The notes beneath the pieces were generated by a model that did not search any database, was not told the origin of the DNA, and saw only the letters and a program-made list of their open reading frames with translations. Position numbers and translations under genes: made by a program. Below are positions 2,930 through 19,854 of a stretch of 19,854 nt of DNA, piece by piece; position 1 is the first letter of the stretch; every line of letters starts with the position of its first letter. This stretch comes from a virus: the UHGV virus genome UHGV-0075699; one strand, 5' to 3'.

Positions 2930-2968
2930 ATTGTCCTCGGTTATCCCCTAGTAGGGATTTTGATTATG

Positions 2969-3481
2969 TTATCCCTTAGCAGGGATAGAAGTTCTCACCG
3001 ATTTGTAAATCCGCTCACAGATCATTCCTGCGGTGTAGCGTTCGTCAGCGATTTCAGCATACCGTCGAGCTTCTTCTGCAAGGTCTCCAAGCATGTCGGC
3101 GAGCATTCCGGCGGTGGTGCCGGTTGTTTTGCTTCTGACGGTAGCGGCAAGACTTGTGGTGTGCTTTGCGGCGTCCAGGCGGGTGGCAAAGGCTTTTGCC
3201 TGCTGGCGCAGCTGGTTAACAGTGCCAGAGAGATTAGCAGCAGCAGCACGCGCTGCAGCGGTTTGAGCTTGAGCATCTTGTACGGCCTCATCGCGGGCGA
3301 TCAAGCGCCCCTGTTCAATCATCCGGGCGACGGTTTGCGCATTCACTGCCTGTGCCGATTCGTCAATATCACGTTGCAGCCATTTGGATTGCCACTGTGT
3401 ATCCTTCCAGAATGCACCTGCGCCAAATGCACCGGTGAGGATCAAACCAATCACAAAACCTTTTGCTTTAGCGCCCATCAT
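2969..3481 (-). CDS. Rz-like inner-membrane spanin (i-spanin)
   Basis: N-terminal TM segment ([18 protein letters not shown]) followed by an Ala/Gln-rich predicted coiled-coil periplasmic domain; located immediately after the lysozyme gene with overlapping start; a second gene is embedded in another frame. Start placed at the ATG at 3481 (ORF track begins at TTG 3484). Confidence 0.8.
3022..3276 (-). CDS. Rz1-like outer-membrane lipoprotein spanin (o-spanin), embedded in Rz
   Basis: Alternative-frame ORF wholly inside Rz; [23 protein letters not shown] has a signal peptide ending in a lipobox-like LLTSC, followed by a Pro-rich mature region ([18 protein letters not shown]). Classic embedded Rz/Rz1 architecture. 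Confidence 0.7.
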
Positions 3482-4007
3482 CAAGCCCCCAGCACGTCAG
3501 CGCACTTTCCTGATCACGGCGCGTTACCTGCCCGTAGCAGTTATTGGAGCGCACCCGGCAATCCTTCCCTCCGTCTTTAATCCACCAGCGAATCGCTTCA
3601 CATGCGCCTTTACGGTCGCCAGCGTTAATCCGCTGGTAGAACGTCGACGGGAAGCAGCGACCGGGACCGATGTTGTACGGACAGAATGAGGCAATGCCGA
3701 CTTTTTGCGGTGGGGTCAGTGGAACGTGGATATTCCGATCAACCCACGCCAGCGCCTTATCACGTTCGACAGCATTCACCTCATCGCATTTGGTCTGGGT
3801 CAGTTTCATACCCTGCGTGACGGGTTTACCATCAATACGCGTGGCACCGCGGCAAATAGTCCAGATCCCCTGGCTGCCATCGCGATACGCGGTCAGCCTG
3901 TTCCCTTCTTTCTCATCAAGGAACTGATCCATTAGAGTAGGCGCAGATGCACCGGCAGCAATGAGCGCCAGCATGGCAGCGCTGAGTTTTGTTTTCATCG
4001 ATGCCAT
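3468..4007 (-). CDS. Endolysin, GH24 lysozyme (T4/P21-type) with N-terminal secretion signal or SAR domain
   Basis: [23 protein letters not shown] matches the E..D..T catalytic triad spacing of T4-type lysozymes; the N-terminus [21 protein letters not shown] is hydrophobic and Ala/Gly-rich with an AxA site. Confidence 0.85.
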
Positions 4008-4008
4008 G

Positions 4009-4257
4009 TCAGTGATCCTGCGGTGGCGGGGTTATATATCCGCGCGCCAGGGCTTTTTCATATGCTCTGGTCTGGCGCCGCTTGAAATAGAAGTTAACGA
4101 AAAATGTCAGCAGGCCAATTACAAATCCTCCGATAACCGCTACCAGGTTCCAGTCGAGATCATGAATCCATTTGGCAAGACCACCCCAGCAGATGAGGCC
4201 GCCCGAAGTGCAATAACCCACTGCCGAAGCAATTTTGTCAGGCATGGTTCTGTTCAT
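4009..4257 (-). CDS. Class II holin, phage-21 S-like (pinholin-type) with dual-start motif
   Basis: Starts MNRTMPDKIASAVGYCTSGGLICWGGLAKW...: two in-frame ATGs 4 codons apart (4257 and 4245) as in holin/antiholin pairs. Two TM segments, the first Gly/Ala/Ser-rich, and a basic C-terminus. AGGAGG SD 7 nt upstream. Pattern resembles recalled S21 ([26 protein letters not shown]...). Confidence 0.75.
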   Translation of the reverse strand: MNRTMPDKIASAVGYCTSGGLICWGGLAKWIHDLDWNLVAVIGGFVIGLLTFFVNFYFKRRQTRAYEKALARGYITPPPQDH

Positions 4258-4311
4258 CCGACACCTCCTGTTGAGGTGCTGTGTGCGTGAAATGAAGTGA
4301 GGAATGAGGGC

Positions 4312-4340
4312 AATAAAAAAGGCCGCCACAGAGGACGACC
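4312..4340 (-). terminator. Probable intrinsic terminator downstream of hicB (minus-strand sense)
   Basis: Minus-sense RNA GGUCGUC-CUCUGU-GGCGGCC (7-bp stem with two G-U pairs) followed by UUUUUUAUU; lies between the hicB stop (4365) and the holin RBS. Confidence 0.45.
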
Positions 4341-4364
4341 TTTTGATAGTGGGGACTGCACTGA

Positions 4365-4772
4365 TTACCGGACAATTATTTCCATTTTTTGTCCTAGTAC
4401 CGATAGTGCTTTTTGAATGGTGTCGATCTTGGTGCTATGACCAAGAGACACGATTCGCTGTACCTCCTGAGGGCGCGTATTAATCATGCGGGCCAGTTCA
4501 GCGTTACTGGTATTGGTACTGACCAGGCGGTTTAGCAATAATACCTTCGCCGCCACGCTTGATGGCACTTCAACAAACGCCTCACCCTCTGCTGAAGGTG
4601 CGGGGATCTCCCGGCGGTCGTCAAAATAGAAATCAAACGCCGTAACCAGGGCATCCTGCGCCATTTCTAACGCTTCCTCCCTGGTTGCCCCTCCCGTCAT
4701 TGCCTCGGGGATATCTGGGAAAAATACCGCCCAGCCGGTTTCGTCATGCTCAAAATTTACCGGATATCTCAT
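4365..4772 (-). CDS. hicB: HicB antitoxin
   Basis: From the internal ATG at 4772 the protein reads MRYPVNFEHDETGWAVFFPDIPEAMTGGATREEALEMAQDALVTAFDFYFDD...LSVLGQKMEIIVR, matching the recalled E. coli HicB pattern (MRYPV...FVDIPEA...DAL.TAFDFYFED...). Directly downstream of hicA. Confidence 0.85.
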   Translation of the reverse strand: MRYPVNFEHDETGWAVFFPDIPEAMTGGATREEALEMAQDALVTAFDFYFDDRREIPAPSAEGEAFVEVPSSVAAKVLLLNRLVSTNTSNAELARMINTRPQEVQRIVSLGHSTKIDTIQKALSVLGQKMEIIVR

Positions 4773-4819
4773 ATTGATTAAGTGAATCTCCACGAGTACC
4801 AGCCCCGGAGGGCTGGTTT

Positions 4820-4996
4820 TTATTTGATACCGAGTTGCTTCAAAATTGCTTTTCTCAGCGGCTCCGGGATTTCCTTGCCCGGGTGTCTCGGCATTATCGT
4901 TTGCTTGCCGTTGAGGTAAATTTTTAAGTGGTTGGTACCATCTTTAAACTCTGCCCCTTGAGCTGCAAGCCAACGCCTGAACTCGCTTTGCTTCAC
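4820..4996 (-). CDS. hicA: HicA mRNA-interferase toxin
   Basis: 58-aa ORF (below the ORF-track size cutoff) found by manual translation: VKQSEFRRWLAAQGAEFKDGTNHLKIYLNGKQTIMPRHPGKEIPEPLRKAILKQLGIK, closely matching recalled E. coli HicA (MKQSEFRRWLESQG...NHLKL...MPRHP...EPLRKAILKQLGL). GTG start preceded by AGGAGGAGG. Confidence 0.85.
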   Translation of the reverse strand: MKQSEFRRWLAAQGAEFKDGTNHLKIYLNGKQTIMPRHPGKEIPEPLRKAILKQLGIK

Positions 4997-5026
4997 TCCT
5001 CCTCCTGTCTGTTTAACTTGAGATAA

Positions 5027-5080
5027 TAATAAACATTTTTGTTTATTAAATCAAGCTAAAATATAAACATTTTTGTTTAT
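5027..5080. promoter_or_regulatory. Two palindromic operator-like sites upstream of hicAB
   Basis: TAATAAACA-TTTT-TGTTTATTA (5027-5048, perfect 9-bp arms) and ATAAACA-TTTT-TGTTTAT (5063-5080), same core repeated about 35 bp apart, located between the late terminator and the hicA RBS. Confidence 0.5.
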
Positions 5081-5110
5081 CCAGAGAGAGGGAGAGTGCG
5101 AGATAAACCA

Positions 5111-5134
5111 ACAAAAAACCCCGCCGAAGCGAGG
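5111..5134 (-). terminator. Late-operon terminator (tR'-like) downstream of the late promoter
   Basis: Minus-sense RNA CCUCGC-UUCG-GCGGGG (6-bp stem, UUCG tetraloop) followed by UUUUUUGUUGG; plus coordinates 5119-5134 stem, 5113-5118 A-run. Confidence 0.6.
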
Positions 5135-5171
5135 TTATTTATAAAAATGGCAAGATATCAAATTACCTCAA

Positions 5172-5200
5172 AATATCGCTCATTTTGTTGCATTTTGCAA
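5172..5200 (-). promoter_or_regulatory. Candidate late promoter (pR'-like) immediately downstream of Q
   Basis: On the minus strand TTGCAA (-35, 5195-5200), 17-bp spacer, GATATT (-10, 5172-5177), about 25 nt after the Q stop and about 55 nt upstream of the terminator; the position is analogous to lambda pR'/qut. Confidence 0.4.
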
Positions 5201-5225
5201 GCCTGATTAAAGGAGATAGCCAACT

Positions 5226-5945
5226 TTAATCACATTTTTCCGTTCTGACCTCTTCTATTTGCTCATGATATGTGTAGATGTTCTGCAATGCGTTGTTATC
5301 CATCTCAATGAAAGCCGTTTTAAGTCGTTCCCAATGCCCGGCATAAACCCTTTTCCAGGTTGAGCGGTCAACTGAAACCATACGCGCCAGAGCTGCGCCA
5401 GCGTAGGTTTTATACGTCTCATTATTCCGGGTCGCTGCAACCTCCTGGCCAGCCAGCCAGACCAGCCCCACAAGCTTTTTTATTACTCTCGATTGGATCG
5501 CCCTGCCTACTTGATAGTTCTGATATTCAGTCCAGACGTGTTCACACATCAGCGTCTGGTAACGGAAATTTAGATCGAAGCCATAGCAATAGCGCACCCA
5601 TGCCTGGTGATGTTCTTCCAGCAGGTTTACAGCGCGCCTCCACGGTGAATAACCGAATTCAATATCATTGATGGGCGGCATTGGCCGGCGGCGGCTGCGG
5701 GTCTCCATCACATAAACTGGAGTAGTCAGTGCCTTAACCACCGACGGGCCACAACCAATCCCCCCTTCCAGATCGACAAGATTGCGAGAGCACCGCGGAT
5801 TTTTATTCTTATCTGCCGGTGGGTTCTCGCTGAATGCCTCGAGTTGTCCCTTTGTTGCGCCGGATAAATCCAACAACGCTCGACGCACTTCAATACGGGT
5901 ATATTCCAGGTTTTGTAGGTTCATACTGCTCAACGCTCCATACAC
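5226..5945 (-). CDS. Probable late antiterminator Q (Qin/82-type Phage_antitermQ-like)
   Basis: 239-aa ORF located exactly where Q sits in lambdoid phages (after the nin-region genes, directly before a promoter-terminator pair and the lysis cassette). Assignment rests mainly on position and size; start could be GTG 5945 or ATG 5924. Confidence 0.5.
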   Translation of the reverse strand: MYGALSSMNLQNLEYTRIEVRRALLDLSGATKGQLEAFSENPPADKNKNPRCSRNLVDLEGGIGCGPSVVKALTTPVYVMETRSRRRPMPPINDIEFGYSPWRRAVNLLEEHHQAWVRYCYGFDLNFRYQTLMCEHVWTEYQNYQVGRAIQSRVIKKLVGLVWLAGQEVAATRNNETYKTYAGAALARMVSVDRSTWKRVYAGHWERLKTAFIEMDNNALQNIYTYHEQIEEVRTEKCD

Positions 5946-7006
5946 TATGCTTTTATAATTGCGCCGATCGCCATAGCTCGATCAAGAAAACGGAACAGCA
6001 GCTCCAACTGCGTGCCATTCTTCTCTTCAAAGGCGTTAACATCGGCATGTAGCTCGTCGTGGCACTCTCTGCACAGAGGAAACACGAAGAGATCGTGGGC
6101 TTTGGTTGCGGTACCGCCCATGCCATGGCCGATGACATGATGCGGATCGTCAGCTGGTCTGCGGCAGCATTCGCATGGTTGATGCTTAACCCAGTCGGTA
6201 TAAGTCTTGCTTACCCAGCGACGGCGCTTTGGCCTGAGCATGAAAGATTCCGGCGATTCCGGATCGGCAGTCAGCGCAAGCCCCTTCGGCTGGTCCTGGT
6301 GCGCCTGGACATTTTCGTTGCGCCTGCATTGCCTTGCTGTGCCTGCAGCTGGCAGTTTCTCCTGCAGAATGCTGGTGGCCGGTAAAGTAGGCCGGATATC
6401 GCTTTCTTTATACACCGACAGGAACGGCTCTTCAGGCAACCCTAGACCACGCTGCGCCATCGTCTCCGTAATGGCATCGGCTATACCTGACTGAACTGCC
6501 CACCAGCACAACTCTGCGATTGAAAGAGAGCGTTCTTTGTTATAACCGAGCCCGATCAGCACAGTATCTATTACCCAGTCGACTACATTACGAAGTGCCA
6601 GCGCCTCGATAGCTGGAGTCGACTGCTCCCGCAGTTTATTGTCACAATGCCAGCACACCAGCAACGCACCAGGCGGATGTCGCATCGTTACCATCTCGTT
6701 ATGGTGGTACTCGGAATGAGGGTACTGGCACCTCTTCAGCCGGAGAAACAGCCACCGTTCAAGCGCTGGCAATCCACCAGCAGCACGAATCACACGCTCA
6801 TCGGAAAAGAATACGTGCAGGCTGGAATCCTCCGCTAAAGGTTGTCGGGCATCAGGGACACGACCAGATGGCAAGCGGGCCATATTTTGTGGTTCAGCCT
6901 CGACTAAAACACGCCCGGCAGAAAACAGGTGCATCAGATCACGGCCGGGCTTAAATAGAACCACGCCGAGGCGTGGCACAATCTCAGGGGTGAGTAACGC
7001 TCTCAT
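5945..7006 (-). CDS. Cys/His-rich nin-region protein, DUF968-like with HNH-like metal-binding C-terminus
   Basis: C-terminal region HQPCECCRRPADDPHHVIGHGMGG...FPLCRECHDELH has paired CxxC and His clusters typical of HNH/zinc-binding nucleases; a second Cys cluster (LLVCWHCDNK) lies mid-protein. Start overlaps the MTase stop. Confidence 0.45.
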   Translation of the reverse strand: MRALLTPEIVPRLGVVLFKPGRDLMHLFSAGRVLVEAEPQNMARLPSGRVPDARQPLAEDSSLHVFFSDERVIRAAGGLPALERWLFLRLKRCQYPHSEYHHNEMVTMRHPPGALLVCWHCDNKLREQSTPAIEALALRNVVDWVIDTVLIGLGYNKERSLSIAELCWWAVQSGIADAITETMAQRGLGLPEEPFLSVYKESDIRPTLPATSILQEKLPAAGTARQCRRNENVQAHQDQPKGLALTADPESPESFMLRPKRRRWVSKTYTDWVKHQPCECCRRPADDPHHVIGHGMGGTATKAHDLFVFPLCRECHDELHADVNAFEEKNGTQLELLFRFLDRAMAIGAIIKA

Positions 7007-8853
7007 GCAACCTCACGCCGACCAGAAACACAAATTTCAGGAAGGTTTGCTCTTACAATCGCCTCAGCAAAGGGCGGCGGCACGGCGTTTCCGCACCTGG
7101 CGACTTGTTTCTCTTTCGAGTACCTCTTGCCGCGGTAGTCACGATCAATGATGTACCAGTCAGGGAATCCCTGAGCGCGGTAAAGTTCATGCGGCTGCAG
7201 CATGCGCATTCCGATATCAACAATGCGGTAAACAATACCCTTAATCGTCACCAGTTCGCTGACGCCAAAAGAATTCAGGAACTCTTTGACCTGATCCGCC
7301 CGGCGCTCGTCGTAATCATTAGCCGCCAGCAGCGCGCGAACCTCTCCAACATGCTGACCTCCAGCGGTGATTGTCGGCATTGGTTCACTGGTGCGCTGGC
7401 CATCGCGGCAGGTACCGCGCAGTTTAACCAGATGAGACGTAACCAGCGCATGGTGATCGACTGTGGTAACTGAGTGTGCAGGATCGTCCAGTCCGACGCC
7501 CGGGCCGGTATAGTTCCCGCCGTAGTGTTTCGCCAAAAACGCAGTTGTTACGGCAAATTTATTGCCACCAGCTACAACTGTTCCCAGCGGTTTACGCAGA
7601 TTTAGAACGCGCGGCGACTGCCCTACACGTTCGCCATACCCCATCTGAATAAGTGTGGCCGCGACAAGCTGTGACTTCCCCCCGCCGCCAGCGGTAATTG
7701 TTGCGCTGGGTTCATCCGCCCGGTGGCCGATGCTGGCGCCGAACTGACGCGCGATAACTGGCGCAACCAGGCAGGAGCGAGACTGTTTAAGGATGGTATG
7801 AGCGGGTTTATTCAATGGCCGCGGTTTCGCCTGGTACTCGCTACCCCCATTACCTGCCAGGAATGGAACCAACGTCGGTAACGCCAGCGCATAACCGTGG
7901 GTTTTGGTGATGGTTTGCAGGGGATCGGCCAGCGACTGTCCGCGGAAGCAATCATATTTACCGCGTGTTGTGGTGTGGTTGCATTTGACGATGAACGGAT
8001 TATCACTTTCGACGACAAACCGCTGGATGCCGCGCGCTATCCGTTTCAACGTGTTAATGGCCAGCGGCTTTTTACGGTCAAATATCGATGGTGCAGGAAT
8101 AGACCAGTCGATACACTCAGCAGCTGTCCGCCATGGTGCCAAATTTCCGGATTTAACTGCTGCGGATTTAGGGTCACCGTGAGTGACTCCCGGCCAGGCA
8201 ATGGGTTTATCGTCACAACGCATCAACATGAAGAATCGCTTGCGGATCGTCGGAGCACCATAATCACTGGCACGCAGTTCGCGATATTCGACCTTATACC
8301 CGAGGCCAGCAATCAGTCGTTTGGCTTGTTTGCCATCCGAGGATATGCCGAGAAATTCGCAACATTCGTACAGAGCCGGGTGATCCGCAGGTATACCAGT
8401 GGAAAGCATTCCAACAAATGCCAGGAAGGTTTCACCAGAACGCTTAGGATCAGGACGCATCTCACATGAAAGCAGCGGGCCCCACGTTTTAAATTCTTCA
8501 ACATTTTCGAGAGCCATTACACGAGGGCGAACATCCAATGCCCAGCGAACAGATACCCAAGCCAGGCCACGAATCTCACGTTTTACCGGTTTACTGCCGC
8601 GCGCCTTTGAATAGTGGGTACAATCCGGGCTGAACCATGCAAACCAGACAGCCTTTCCACCTGTCGCAGCGACAGGGTCAACGTCAAAGACGTTTTCACA
8701 ATAATGAAGCGTGTCCGGGTGATTCGTCCGGTGCATGGCCACGGCGTTTTCGTCGTGGTTAATGGCAATATCAACGCTGCGGCCGATCGCCATTTCTATC
8801 CCGGTAGATGCCCCACCACCGCCAGCAAAATTATCAACAATCAGCTCACGCAT
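7003..8853 (-). CDS. DNA (cytosine-5)-methyltransferase with large variable/target-recognition region
   Basis: Motif I DNFAGGGGAS (AdoMet binding), motif IV SPDCTHYS (catalytic Pro-Cys), motif VI ENV, C-terminal CGNAVPPP (motif X). About 400 aa lie between motif VI and the C-terminal motifs. Confidence 0.85.
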   Translation of the reverse strand: MRELIVDNFAGGGGASTGIEMAIGRSVDIAINHDENAVAMHRTNHPDTLHYCENVFDVDPVAATGGKAVWFAWFSPDCTHYSKARGSKPVKREIRGLAWVSVRWALDVRPRVMALENVEEFKTWGPLLSCEMRPDPKRSGETFLAFVGMLSTGIPADHPALYECCEFLGISSDGKQAKRLIAGLGYKVEYRELRASDYGAPTIRKRFFMLMRCDDKPIAWPGVTHGDPKSAAVKSGNLAPWRTAAECIDWSIPAPSIFDRKKPLAINTLKRIARGIQRFVVESDNPFIVKCNHTTTRGKYDCFRGQSLADPLQTITKTHGYALALPTLVPFLAGNGGSEYQAKPRPLNKPAHTILKQSRSCLVAPVIARQFGASIGHRADEPSATITAGGGGKSQLVAATLIQMGYGERVGQSPRVLNLRKPLGTVVAGGNKFAVTTAFLAKHYGGNYTGPGVGLDDPAHSVTTVDHHALVTSHLVKLRGTCRDGQRTSEPMPTITAGGQHVGEVRALLAANDYDERRADQVKEFLNSFGVSELVTIKGIVYRIVDIGMRMLQPHELYRAQGFPDWYIIDRDYRGKRYSKEKQVARCGNAVPPPFAEAIVRANLPEICVSGRREVA

Positions 8854-9742
8854 GGCTCACCCCCTGCATGCTTTCTACCAGTCCACCAGCAACAGTGATG
8901 ATCTCGCTGGTGGGCATACGCTCCAGCCACAGCTGGTTAATTTGCGCCATCAGCTTGTTTTGCTGGGACGGCTCCAGTCCTTCGGATCCTTCTACCTGTC
9001 GAAACACAAGCCCTACCTCCAGTGGCCAAATACGCGATTCCGTCTCTGGTAATTGCGTAGGCGTTGCGAGTGGTTCTACTGCCGCCGGCTGCGACATTAC
9101 CTGTGCTGGAGTATTGCCAACAGCAAACTGCGCCAGCATCATGAACGCTTGCCCTTTCCTTTCCAGATCCGCACGGTGGATATAGCCGAACCGCTCCCCG
9201 CGCCAGGCCTTATCAAACACGGCAATGGCGCCCGCAAAAAACGCGCTGGTGGGCTTTTGCTTATCATCAGCAGGGACAAACCACGCCGGGAGGTCGAATC
9301 CAATACGACCACGAATAAACATGATGTGATCGGCATCTTCTGGCCACCATGTTTCGCTCGGTGCTGCTTTGATGAGAAATACATAGCGCCCGCCCTTCTC
9401 ACGCTGCGCTGACGCGTAATTCATGATGTGCGTCATGCCAGTTATCGCCTGCTTTTCGTGGTACTGGGAGCGGCTATACGGTGGGTTGCCAAAGCCAGCG
9501 CCGCCAAGTTCTTCCAGACGAGCGGACCAATCTTGCGTCAGCGCGTTGTCTTCGGCGGTGAACCATACCGGGCATTTTGCGTTGCTATCGTCAGCAAACA
9601 GGTCCAGTACCAGCGGTCCAAACATTGCGTTAACGCCCCAGAACAGCAGATCAGGCGTGCGCCACTGATCACCAACGTCTTTCAGAAAATGGGACGGTGC
9701 AGCGCGCATGGCCGCCAGCGATTCACAATATGCATTCGTCAC
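8846..9742 (-). CDS. Phage-type DNA N6-adenine methyltransferase
   Basis: Contains GFGNPPYSRSQ (the NPPY motif of N6-adenine / N4-cytosine amino-MTases) with upstream AdoMet-binding-like segment. 8-nt overlap with the downstream C5-MTase gene. Confidence 0.8.
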   Translation of the reverse strand: MTNAYCESLAAMRAAPSHFLKDVGDQWRTPDLLFWGVNAMFGPLVLDLFADDSNAKCPVWFTAEDNALTQDWSARLEELGGAGFGNPPYSRSQYHEKQAITGMTHIMNYASAQREKGGRYVFLIKAAPSETWWPEDADHIMFIRGRIGFDLPAWFVPADDKQKPTSAFFAGAIAVFDKAWRGERFGYIHRADLERKGQAFMMLAQFAVGNTPAQVMSQPAAVEPLATPTQLPETESRIWPLEVGLVFRQVEGSEGLEPSQQNKLMAQINQLWLERMPTSEIITVAGGLVESMQGVSHA

Positions 9743-17659: not shown

Positions 17660-17869
17660 ATGGCAAAACTAATGAAGGCGAGTCAATGGGGCAAACGCGA
17701 ATTTGCCAAAGACTCTATTCCGGATAACCGAACCATTAAACGTTGGGTTGAAAATGGGCTACTCACAGGGAAGATCGTCGACGGTTCTGTTTTCGTCTTC
17801 GAGTCTGAAAAATGGGGAGTCGACTCAATGGTTAATCATACGGTTCGACAGCTAATAAATGAAGGTTGA
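17660..17869 (+). CDS. xis: Excisionase (Xis-like DNA-binding protein)
   Basis: 69-aa protein immediately upstream of and overlapping int; segment NRTIKRWVENGLLTGKIVDGSVFVFES resembles lambda Xis (ETVRRWVRECRIFPPPVKDGREYLFHES). Confidence 0.65.
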   Translation: MAKLMKASQWGKREFAKDSIPDNRTIKRWVENGLLTGKIVDGSVFVFESEKWGVDSMVNHTVRQLINEG

Positions 17870-17871
17870 CC

Positions 17872-19050
17872 ATGGCAGCCAGACCAAGAAAAAGAGAATA
17901 TCGCCACCTTCCAGAATATCTTTTATTTGATAAAGATCGCGGTGTTTATAAATTTACTCTTATAACAGGAAAGAAAAAGAACCTTGGTAAAGATCGAGCT
18001 ATGGCGATTGCTGTAGCTCGCGAATACAACCTAAGAATGAGACCATTAAACGTACCATCTGTTGATGTATTAATTAGGGAATCAGGTGGTATCGCTGGTG
18101 AGGCCAAACCATTTGCTGAATATGTAGACCATATTATGAACCGAGCAATTGAGAATGAGCGGCCATCACAAAATACCCTCGACGATTGGAATAATGATGC
18201 CATTCGTGTGAAAGAATTTTTTATCAATATTCCCGCTTGCGATATTGAACTGGAGCATGTAAACGCCTACATAAACCATTATCATGCTGAAGCTTCAGCA
18301 AACGTACAGAATAGGAAAGTCAGCTTCCTTAAAAAACTTTTCTCCTATGCGGTCGATGAATCATTAATGTTTGATAACCCGGCCACACGTAAAAAGATGC
18401 GCAGGACTGAGGAGAAGAAACGGCAGCGCCTGTCACTCGAACACTTTAAAGCCATCAGACGCGCCGCCGAGCCATGGCTACGGACTGCGATGGATTTAGC
18501 ATTGCAGACGACGCATGCGCGCCTTGAGGTGTCACGAATCCGATATTCAATCAGTGAGCCAAAAGATGGCGTCTGCGGGTGTGTATGGCTTGCACAGCCG
18601 GAAAACGGGATTTATGGCACGCTGTACATTCACCGCCAGAAAGTACAGAAGAAAGAGGCCTCGCATGTCGCAATCCCGATCGGGGAAGAGTTGAAGCGGA
18701 TTATTGACGAAAGCCGCGATAATGTAGCCAGCCCGTTTATCGTTCACCGGATTCCAGATAGGCAGGTTAAGCGTAGTAAAGAAGTTTCACACCCAACACA
18801 GGTTGCGCCGGACTATCTGAGCCGGTCCTTTTCAGCGGTGCGCGACAAACTTGGCTTATGCGACAAACTGGCGATGGACGAAAGACCAACCTTTCACGAA
18901 ATTCGAGCGCTGGCCGCCCATCTTTTTGATCAGCAAGGTATCGATCCGCAAGGACGAATGGCGCACAGTGATGCGAAGTCGACCAAGATTTACACGCAAA
19001 ACCATATCGATTGGGTTGTCGTTCCACATGGTGAAATTAAAGCCGGATAA
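17872..19050 (+). CDS. int: Tyrosine integrase (lambda Int family)
   Basis: C-terminal catalytic region contains PTFHEIRALAAHLF (H-x-x-R box, compare lambda PTFHELRSLSARLY) and the tyrosine-containing STKIYTQNH; arm-binding-type basic N-terminus. Start placed at ATG 17872 (GAAGG RBS); ORF track begins at TTG 17866. Lies next to the tRNA-derived att core. Confidence 0.9.
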   Translation: MAARPRKREYRHLPEYLLFDKDRGVYKFTLITGKKKNLGKDRAMAIAVAREYNLRMRPLNVPSVDVLIRESGGIAGEAKPFAEYVDHIMNRAIENERPSQNTLDDWNNDAIRVKEFFINIPACDIELEHVNAYINHYHAEASANVQNRKVSFLKKLFSYAVDESLMFDNPATRKKMRRTEEKKRQRLSLEHFKAIRRAAEPWLRTAMDLALQTTHARLEVSRIRYSISEPKDGVCGCVWLAQPENGIYGTLYIHRQKVQKKEASHVAIPIGEELKRIIDESRDNVASPFIVHRIPDRQVKRSKEVSHPTQVAPDYLSRSFSAVRDKLGLCDKLAMDERPTFHEIRALAAHLFDQQGIDPQGRMAHSDAKSTKIYTQNHIDWVVVPHGEIKAG

Positions 19051-19484: not shown

Positions 19485-19854
19485 ATGAGAGTTAATGGAC
19501 TTACGAAGGGATTTTTTATCCTGATTTTGCTGATGGTCAGCCTCGCCTTTTTTAATGTTCTTTCGCCTTATTATTCAGCCATACTGTGGGCCGCGATTCT
19601 GTCGGTCATCTTCAACCCGGTAAAGAACAAATTGCGGGCTCGCCTCGGTGAGCGCAATGACCTGGCATCGTTGTTGACCGTGGTGATTATCTGCCTGATT
19701 GTTTTCACGCCGCTGGCGATCATCATTTCATCGCTGGCGTTCGAGCTAAACCTGGTTTACACCCGGCTTCAGCATAATGACACCCAGTTTCCGGTGGTGG
19801 TGGCAAACCTGTTTGCCCATCTGCCCGAGTGGGCCAGAAGCTTTCTCTCCGAAC
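19485..19854 (+). CDS. Host inner-membrane protein, probable AI-2E (PerM/YdiK-type) transporter family; N-terminal part, CDS continues past window end
   Basis: Open frame from ATG 19485 to the window end: MRVNGLTKGFFILILLMVSLAFFNVLSPYYSAILWAAILSVIFNPVKNKLRARLGERNDLASLLTVVIICLIVFTPLAIII... shows alternating TM helices and the conserved loop pattern of AI-2E family proteins. Not in the ORF track because no stop codon falls within the window. Confidence 0.45.
   Translation, partial: MRVNGLTKGFFILILLMVSLAFFNVLSPYYSAILWAAILSVIFNPVKNKLRARLGERNDLASLLTVVIICLIVFTPLAIIISSLAFELNLVYTRLQHNDTQFPVVVANLFAHLPEWARSFLSE

Follow-up and report, generated by a model that had tools for sequence, protein, structure and literature searches.

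The biology of hicAB toxin-antitoxin modules is still poorly defined, and their phage-borne copies have scarcely been studied (PMC11594946). Modules whose HicB antitoxin bears a helix-turn-helix (HTH) domain form class 3 (Gerdes 2024, PMC10865869). In Escherichia coli K-12 the operator hicO is an inverted repeat bound by HicB dimers (PMC10865869), and the transcript from the P2 promoter, according to Turnbull and Gerdes 2017 as cited in PMC11878559 and to PMC10865869, starts a single base upstream of the ribosome-binding site of hicA and gives rise to HicB only. In Yersinia pestis hicA3B3 the repeat overlapping the -10 element is the main operator, and HicB tetramers bind (reviewed in PMC11594946). 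In the hicA^T B module of IncI2 mcr-1 plasmids a G/C-rich hairpin followed by UUU in the spacer between hicA and hicB acts as a non-canonical internal terminator (Lin et al., NAR 2025, PMC11878559), and through this hairpin hicA mRNA is held about 10-fold above hicB mRNA (PMC11878559). Here we analyze a hicAB cassette in the virus genome UHGV-0075699, of which the whole stretch of 19,854 nucleotides (nt) is referred to as the window. The cassette is accessory cargo on the minus strand of an enterobacterial lambda-like prophage, between the leader terminator of the late operon and the lysis genes. Very probably it is a functional operon of class 3 that travels with the phage as a moron (PMC3594210 for the concept) and has its own promoter, operators and terminator.

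Domain content and gene order of the hicAB pair

The first-pass annotation, made from the letters of the window alone, had named the two genes hicA and hicB, and comparison with protein families and structures agrees with both names. HicA matches the Pfam family HicA_toxin (PF07927, E=1.6e-9) and aligns with HicA of E. coli K-12 (PDB 6HPB_A, E=3.5e-22), to which it is approximately 63-65% identical by a hand count on the alignment; tblastn gives 63.2% to an E. coli record. In the alignment to 6HPB_A the sequence GTNHLK stands opposite GSNHLK, and the GxNH motif, whose histidine we take to be catalytic, is retained. HicB matches HicB_lk_antitox (PF15919, E=2e-8) over residues 3-61 and K-12 HicB (PDB 6HPB_B, E=2.6e-34) over residues 1-133, an alignment that includes the C-terminal HTH region; HTH_3 is hit over residues 87-130 at 18.1 bits, which is under the Pfam cut-off. 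Neither HicA nor HicB has a match in NCBIfam.

HicB combines the N-terminal partial RNase H-like domain and the C-terminal HTH domain of class 3. The two genes form a bicistronic unit on the same strand, hicA followed by hicB after a 47-nt spacer, with a promoter-like site upstream of hicA only and a terminator after hicB only. By domain content and gene order, the pair is a class 3 hicAB type II toxin-antitoxin module, with HicA as the RNase toxin and HicB as the antitoxin.

One codon within hicA deserves mention. Codon 34 (window positions 4893-4898 correspond to codons 33-35) ends in A, as ATA or GTA, in 61 of the 76 distinct family members with isoleucine or valine at this position, compared with 21% for the other isoleucine and valine codons of hicA and hicB (Fisher p ~1e-27 for the contrast, with kinship ignored). 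The corresponding codon of K-12 hicA is GTC. The A-ending codon preserves the sequence (A/G)TAATG and coincides with a sigma-70-like match, TTTACC-16 nt-GATAAT, at 4920-4893; the conserved (A/G)TAATG may be the -10 element of an internal promoter for transcripts that carry hicB only.

Cassette limits and the late-leader interval

Along the direction of transcription, a gene with DUF968/HNH-like product is followed by the antiterminator gene Q, a candidate late promoter PR', the tR'-like terminator, the palindromes with the hicAB promoter, hicA, the hairpin, hicB, a terminator and the lysis genes (Table 1); every gene of this region is on the minus strand, the orientation of late transcription. 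The proposed placement of the module between the late terminator and the lysis genes is borne out by the genome of Klebsiella phage KpnBHU6, which is homologous to window positions 2966-4278 (the lysis genes plus 22 nt of holin leader) and 5113-7095 (tR', PR', Q and DUF968). The homology breaks at 5112/5113, immediately past the T-run of tR', and at 4278/4279. Comparison of cassettes with one another gives the limits from the inside: similarity sets in exactly at the distal operator and ends just past the T-run of the terminator, about 20 nt beyond hicB, in agreement with the earlier description of a self-contained unit with operators upstream and a terminator downstream. This exit terminator folds at -14 kcal/mol (z=-3.4) with UUUUUU directly 3' of the stem, and a terminator follows hicB in most of the relatives listed, with compensatory changes in the stem. 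The cassette shows two features of a moron: the promoter-like site (5054-5026) and the terminator (4340-4312) are its own and are conserved with it, and it is present or absent between homologous phage genomes, as seen with KpnBHU6 and with the three loci L187, L191 and L024 described below.

What occupies this position differs between related phages. In KpnBHU6 the interval from tR' to the holin gene (L088, 1782-4052) holds 2.27 kb of other cargo, and in Citrobacter phage phiNP the same interval holds a dam methylase and a hypothetical gene. Three loci share another type of Q: L187 is without cargo, L191 carries 1.4 kb of different cargo and L024 carries hicAB. For the wider comparison we sampled relatives from 80 viral contigs and 80 species-representative genomes, with HicB identities of 50-96%. 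At least 23 of the 53 upstream neighbours in the 80 viral loci are Q antiterminators, belonging to three Pfam families (PF06530, PF03589 and PF06323), and about 40 of the 68 nearest downstream open reading frames (ORFs) are holins of at least four families; other viral loci adjoin terminase, Mom or IS1 genes. Among loci with the holin family of the window, hicAB lies directly upstream of the holin gene in 5 of 23. The identical HicB is indexed in 37 blocks of an assembly collection, and the order DUF968, Q, hicA, hicB, holin, lysozyme is found on all six contigs listed. A search for the exact empty site, with tR' followed directly by this holin leader, found none. Taken together, gene order and homology identify the tR'-to-holin interval as a general cargo-exchange hot spot, which may be empty or hold hicAB or other cargo, and it is this hot spot that the position of the cassette appears to reflect.

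The cargo of KpnBHU6 includes a gene for a type II-like DNA methyltransferase (L088, 2582-3631, minus strand) and, on the opposite strand, a different full-length HicB_lk_antitox ORF (L088, 2136-2546). More than one kind of HicB-like gene therefore uses the site.

From the terminator of hicB to the start of the holin gene the promoter scan lists no promoter-like site, and the holin leader shared with KpnBHU6 amounts to only about 22 nt; late transcripts would therefore need to traverse the hicAB cassette to reach the lysis genes. In the lysogen, the exit terminator would prevent the cassette promoter from driving expression of the holin.

This arrangement raises the question of whether the placement is itself functional. 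The cassette could be transcribed either from its own repressed promoter, subject to the hairpin and the terminator, or by terminator-resistant Q-modified polymerase. Induction would then alter the ratio of HicA to HicB, which could bring self-immunity through more HicB or a timed burst of toxin that aids the lytic cycle. In keeping with such a function, unrelated families of Q and holin genes flank the cassette at different loci, the genes of the cassette run in the direction of late transcription, and between them lies a sense-strand hairpin that antiterminated polymerase should ignore. Sister phages, however, have unrelated cargo or nothing in the same interval, the cassette also adjoins terminase, Mom, IS1 and chromosomal genes, and a simple hot spot accounts for the pattern more simply. 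We therefore regard a function of the placement as unlikely, and a coupling of the toxin-antitoxin pair to the lytic switch as plausible speculation of low probability; the role in abortive infection suggested in the first-pass annotation would likewise be plausible. A more specific version, which we consider rather unlikely as well, is that the hairpin and the exit terminator act on transcripts from the cassette promoter and are ignored by Q-modified polymerase, so that the module could distinguish lysogeny or superinfection from induction of its own prophage, with the putative internal promoter at codon 34 as a possible second layer. If this were true, a prophage-borne abortive-infection toxin would have self-immunity built into its cassette.

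The hairpin between hicA and hicB

A stem-loop between the two genes had been proposed in the first-pass annotation, and it is present at 4798-4817, with a predicted fold of -17.7 kcal/mol (z=-3.1). Its strand had to be refined: the terminator scan lists the hairpin on the non-gene (plus) strand, and comparison with relatives assigns it to the sense RNA. The comparison covered 152 loci with both genes, 12 of which have a spacer shorter than 30 nt. Most of the remaining loci carry a GC-rich hairpin, usually closed by a tetraloop, that starts 3-10 nt past the hicA stop codon. The stems are diverse in sequence and include CCAGCCC, GCUGGCUCA, CCAACUCC, AGGCCCC, GUGGGCGGC and GUUGGGGC, among others. 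Stem variants that differ by a single transition, of which there are at least seven kinds, all form G.U pairs on the gene strand and A.C mismatches on the other strand (kinship ignored), and among the stem variants compared there was no reverse case with G.U on the plus strand only. Because the G.U pairs are confined to the gene strand, the hairpin is best read as a structure that works in the sense mRNA. By analogy with the IncI2 hairpin, its nearest precedent, we propose that it serves as an attenuator or as a barrier to decay that raises the hicA:hicB ratio. Rfam gave nothing at gathering score for 4200-5300, where the only matches were terminator-like and sub-threshold.

The scan result itself suggests the alternative that the stem-loop is a terminator for antisense transcription on the plus strand, where TTTTTATTT lies 3' of the hairpin and the fold is about equally stable. 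In addition to the strand asymmetry of the G.U pairs, on which we rejected this reading, more distant relatives retain the hairpin without the preceding A-run, so that a general antisense terminator is not at work, and there is no gene or promoter on the plus strand that is directed into the hairpin. An antisense terminator is thus very unlikely.

Putative operators, promoter and leader

Both palindromes are exact 18-nt copies of ATAAACATTTTTGTTTAT. With up to two mismatches allowed, the window contains 2 matches where 0.06 are expected, and none of 200 shuffled sequences (0/200) reaches 2, so the palindrome is no chance feature. The two copies are arranged around a sigma-70-like promoter, and its elements recur in relatives as CTTGnn and TATAnT at the same positions. 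Upstream of K-12 hicA, GTAAACACTAATGTTTAC directly precedes the -10 element TATACT and has the core TAAACA-N4-TGTTTA in common with the palindromes of the window.

The pattern TAAnCA-N4-TGnTTA was searched for within 150 nt of the start codon in 133 distinct upstream regions. At least one site is present in 128 of them and two or more in 100, against a background rate in the same loci of 0.058 per 150 nt. The position of the sites is restricted as well: measured from the first base of its 16-nt core, one base in from the edge of the 18-nt palindrome, the proximal site lies 49-51 nt ahead of the start codon in 104 of the 128 site-bearing regions. Spacings between the two sites fall into two classes, 21-22 bp (29 regions) and 31-34 bp (68 regions); the window, with 34 bp, belongs to the second. 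A spacing of about two or three helical turns suggests that the two sites could be occupied together by a HicB dimer of dimers from one side of the DNA. Among close relatives the intervening sequence changes freely, and most keep both operators at 18/18. The variable position of the operator half-site differs even inside single palindromes. The motif accompanies HicB-HTH genes into Paraburkholderia, Rhodocyclaceae and Acidobacteria. The match to the K-12 core and the conservation across approximately 130 distinct related promoters thus support the initial suggestion that the palindromes are likely HicB operators.

The palindromes might instead bind another regulator, such as a phage repressor or a host factor, or be recombination sites or the ends of a mobile element, and cassette similarity does begin exactly at the distal palindrome. 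This reading has very little probability: the core is shared with the chromosomal region upstream of K-12 hicA, for which hicO has been reported, the sites are found alongside HicB-HTH genes in Betaproteobacteria and Acidobacteria as well, their position is fixed relative to the -10 element and the start codon, and the other end of the cassette has no matching repeat.

The distance from the -10 element to the Shine-Dalgarno sequence is 19 nt in the window and 7 nt in K-12. Given this longer leader, we infer that HicA and HicB would both be produced from the cassette promoter.

A further half-site of the operator, reading TTAAACA on the gene strand, is located in the hicA leader at 5010-5016, around +4 to +10 of the transcript as predicted. 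This half-site is conserved in close relatives, and TGTTCAACA is found in its place in more distant ones.

Integrity of the module

The ratio of nonsynonymous to synonymous substitution rates (dN/dS), determined against 18 relatives, is 0.03-0.10 for hicA and 0.02-0.17 for hicB, with dS already at 0.4-0.9 to the closest relatives. Such low values at both genes indicate strong purifying selection, which lends indirect support to a toxicity of HicA that HicB would neutralise. The sole argument for a decaying, inactive remnant is that toxin-antitoxin loci in prophages are commonly defective; such decay is scarcely credible in view of the full-length frames, the intact GxNH motif, a dN/dS far under 1 and a promoter, operators, hairpin and terminator that are both intact and conserved.

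Neighbouring genes and host

The features of the region are collected in Table 1; each element named in the first-pass annotation was found within 1-2 nt of the position given there, all on the minus strand.

Table 1. Features of the hicAB cassette and its surroundings in the window (positions in nt; aa, amino acids)
Feature	Position	Strand	Basis
DUF968/HNH-like gene	7006-5945	minus	
Late-gene antiterminator Q	5945-5226	minus	PF06323 Phage_antiter_Q, E=3.9e-35
Candidate late promoter PR', TTGCAA-17 nt-GATATT	5200-5172	minus	read from sequence
tR'-like intrinsic terminator of the late leader, CCUCGC-UUCG-GCGGGG + U6	5136-5111 (hairpin 5136-5117)	minus	terminator scan
Variable cargo segment with hicAB cassette, 834 bp	5112-4279	minus	KpnBHU6 homology breaks
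Distal operator-like palindrome, ATAAACA-TTTT-TGTTTAT, upstream of -35	5063-5080		exact repeat
Sigma-70-like hicAB promoter, -35 TTGATT (5054-5049), 17-nt spacer, -10 TATTAT (5031-5026)	5054-5026	minus	scan, 9/12
Proximal operator-like palindrome, overlaps spacer and -10	5029-5046		exact repeat
Shine-Dalgarno sequence of hicA, AGGAGGAGGA, strong	5006-4997	minus	
hicA, GTG start, 58 aa (stop included in coordinates)	4996-4820	minus	Pfam and PDB alignment
GC tetraloop hairpin, 8-bp GC stem, from 5 nt past hicA stop	4798-4817	minus	fold and comparison
hicB, ATG start, 135 aa	4772-4365	minus	Pfam and PDB alignment
Cassette exit terminator, GGUCGUC...GGCGGCC + U6	4340-4312	minus	fold
Lysis cassette including P21-type holin, endolysin and Rz	4257-2969	minus	Pfam and ORFs
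P21-type holin, dual start MNRTM	4257-4009	minus	PF04971
Lysozyme-family endolysin	4007-3468	minus	PF00959
Rz	3484-2969	minus	PF10721
Nested ORF, putative Rz1	3291-3022	minus	position alone

In the gene calls of other assemblies Q starts at an ATG, which gives a protein of 232 aa. The PR' stretch is conserved in KpnBHU6, and the tR'-like terminator has a predicted fold of -14.8 kcal/mol (z=-4.3). The lysis cassette is P21-like in appearance, and the N-terminus of the endolysin is hydrophobic, so the enzyme is presumably of the signal-arrest-release (SAR) type. Two genes for DNA methyltransferases, one of 616 aa and one of 298 aa (Dam family), precede DUF968 and Q at 7003-9742, and the order of methyltransferase, DUF968 and Q is the same in contigs L086 and L087.

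An integrase is encoded at 17866-19050, and beyond it lies part of an AI-2E family transporter gene (19492-19846) that is 74% identical to the E. coli gene; a short piece of the flank on this side recurs at 99% identity or more in nearly all E. coli genomes. No exact or close DNA match was present in 5,426 complete E. coli genomes, species-representative genomes contained relatives at no more than 83% identity, and among GenBank phages the PR'/tR' flank was the sole match in a DNA search. ARAGORN found no tRNA in the window. Because there is no near DNA match in E. coli genomes and the AI-2E gene stands at 74%, the host is an enterobacterium other than E. coli.

Discussion

The reading of the cassette as a functional class 3 hicAB operon and moron suggests the following mechanism. 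HicB would bind the two hicO-type palindromes, which at a distance of 34 bp point to approximately the same side of the helix, enclose the -35 element and overlap the -10 element, and binding would lead to autorepression of the cassette promoter in the lysogen. The leader of about 23 nt is predicted to retain the full Shine-Dalgarno sequence, so that HicA and HicB could both be made. The hairpin after hicA would shift the ratio of hicA to hicB transcript towards hicA, either as a weak non-canonical terminator or as a barrier to decay, and the strong terminator after hicB would keep cassette transcription off the holin gene during lysogeny. After induction, Q-modified polymerase starting at PR' would read through tR', the cassette and the cassette terminator into the lysis genes. 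The most likely role of the module, judged from its genes and their setting, would be that of addiction or anti-phage cargo expressed in the lysogen.

Several observations weigh against this reading or parts of it. PADLOC gives no match for HicA and only a weak one for HicB, and no library files the module as a defence system. The candidate PR' agrees with the consensus at 8 of 12 positions, which is under the threshold of the promoter scan and the reason why it is not listed there. By the usual rules the hairpin between the genes is a poor intrinsic terminator, with one U after the stem in the window and one to three in relatives. Finally, the IncI2 module, the described system with an internal hairpin, is not detectably homologous: tblastn of HicA and HicB against plasmids returned no IncI2-type relatives.

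The cassette belongs to a large and well-conserved family in which the operator motif can be read from the sequence, two operators are set at a spacing of whole helical turns, and the mRNA contains a hairpin without a counterpart in K-12. This makes it a convenient natural system for studying how the toxin:antitoxin ratio is set in operons in which the toxin gene comes first. It is also suited to asking whether a prophage hicAB defends its lysogen, and how cargo in the late leader avoids turning on the lysis genes. Current understanding is unchanged unless the placement proves functional.

Comparison with known systems

In lambdoid phages, the stx genes are located in the late-leader interval between Q and S. 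Cargo in the late leader is co-transcribed with the late genes after induction (PMC8065619). The cassette resembles these Q-S morons in lying between tR' and the holin gene in the orientation of the late operon, and differs from them in that its cargo is a toxin-antitoxin pair with autoregulation of its own and a strong exit terminator.

The same gene order is seen in Cronobacter phage ENT39118 (NC_019934), which has a Q-like gene, a hicB that is 79% identical, a holin, an endolysin and an Rz-like spanin, and differs in that one further ORF, oppositely oriented, separates Q from the cassette. In the ENT39118 record hicB is annotated and a 58-aa hicA just upstream of it (L172, ~2774-2947) is not. 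Viral contig L027 encodes a HicA at 83% identity.

The hicAB module of E. coli K-12 (PDB 6HPB) is alike in its toxin-first order, in a HicA that is approximately 63-65% identical and a HicB that is a clear homologue, and in a palindrome with the core TAAACA-N4-TGTTTA beside the -10 element; autorepression by HicB is the mechanism reported for it (PMC10865869). In contrast to the single operator of K-12, the window has two identical ones. Its leader is about 12 nt longer, and hicA is therefore expected to be translated from the repressed promoter, unlike in K-12, where P2 gives HicB only. The window has no room for a CRP-S P1 promoter such as that of K-12, and it has a conserved hairpin between the genes, which K-12 hicAB lacks. 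The K-12 module is chromosomal, whereas that of the window is prophage-borne.

In operator layout, the cassette is similar to Y. pestis hicA3B3, in which two inverted repeats (BS1 and BS2) flank the promoter and one of them lies over the -10 element. The repeats of hicA3B3 are 15 bp long and its intergenic region measures 174 bp. The IncI2 hicA^T B module shares with the window a G/C-rich hairpin in the hicA-hicB spacer. That spacer is 24 bp with UUU, compared with 47 nt in the window and a single U after the stem, fewer than the three U of the plasmid module. Given the short U tract and the lack of detectable protein homology, we consider hicA^T B a possible analogue and do not file the cassette as a member of that group.

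Set against these systems, the module is a well-preserved representative of a type already known and not a new system. What the present analysis adds is the match of its operators to the K-12 core, the conservation of the two operators and of their helical phasing throughout the family, the assignment of the hairpin to the sense strand together with its conservation, and the precise boundaries of a cassette that is polymorphic for presence and absence.

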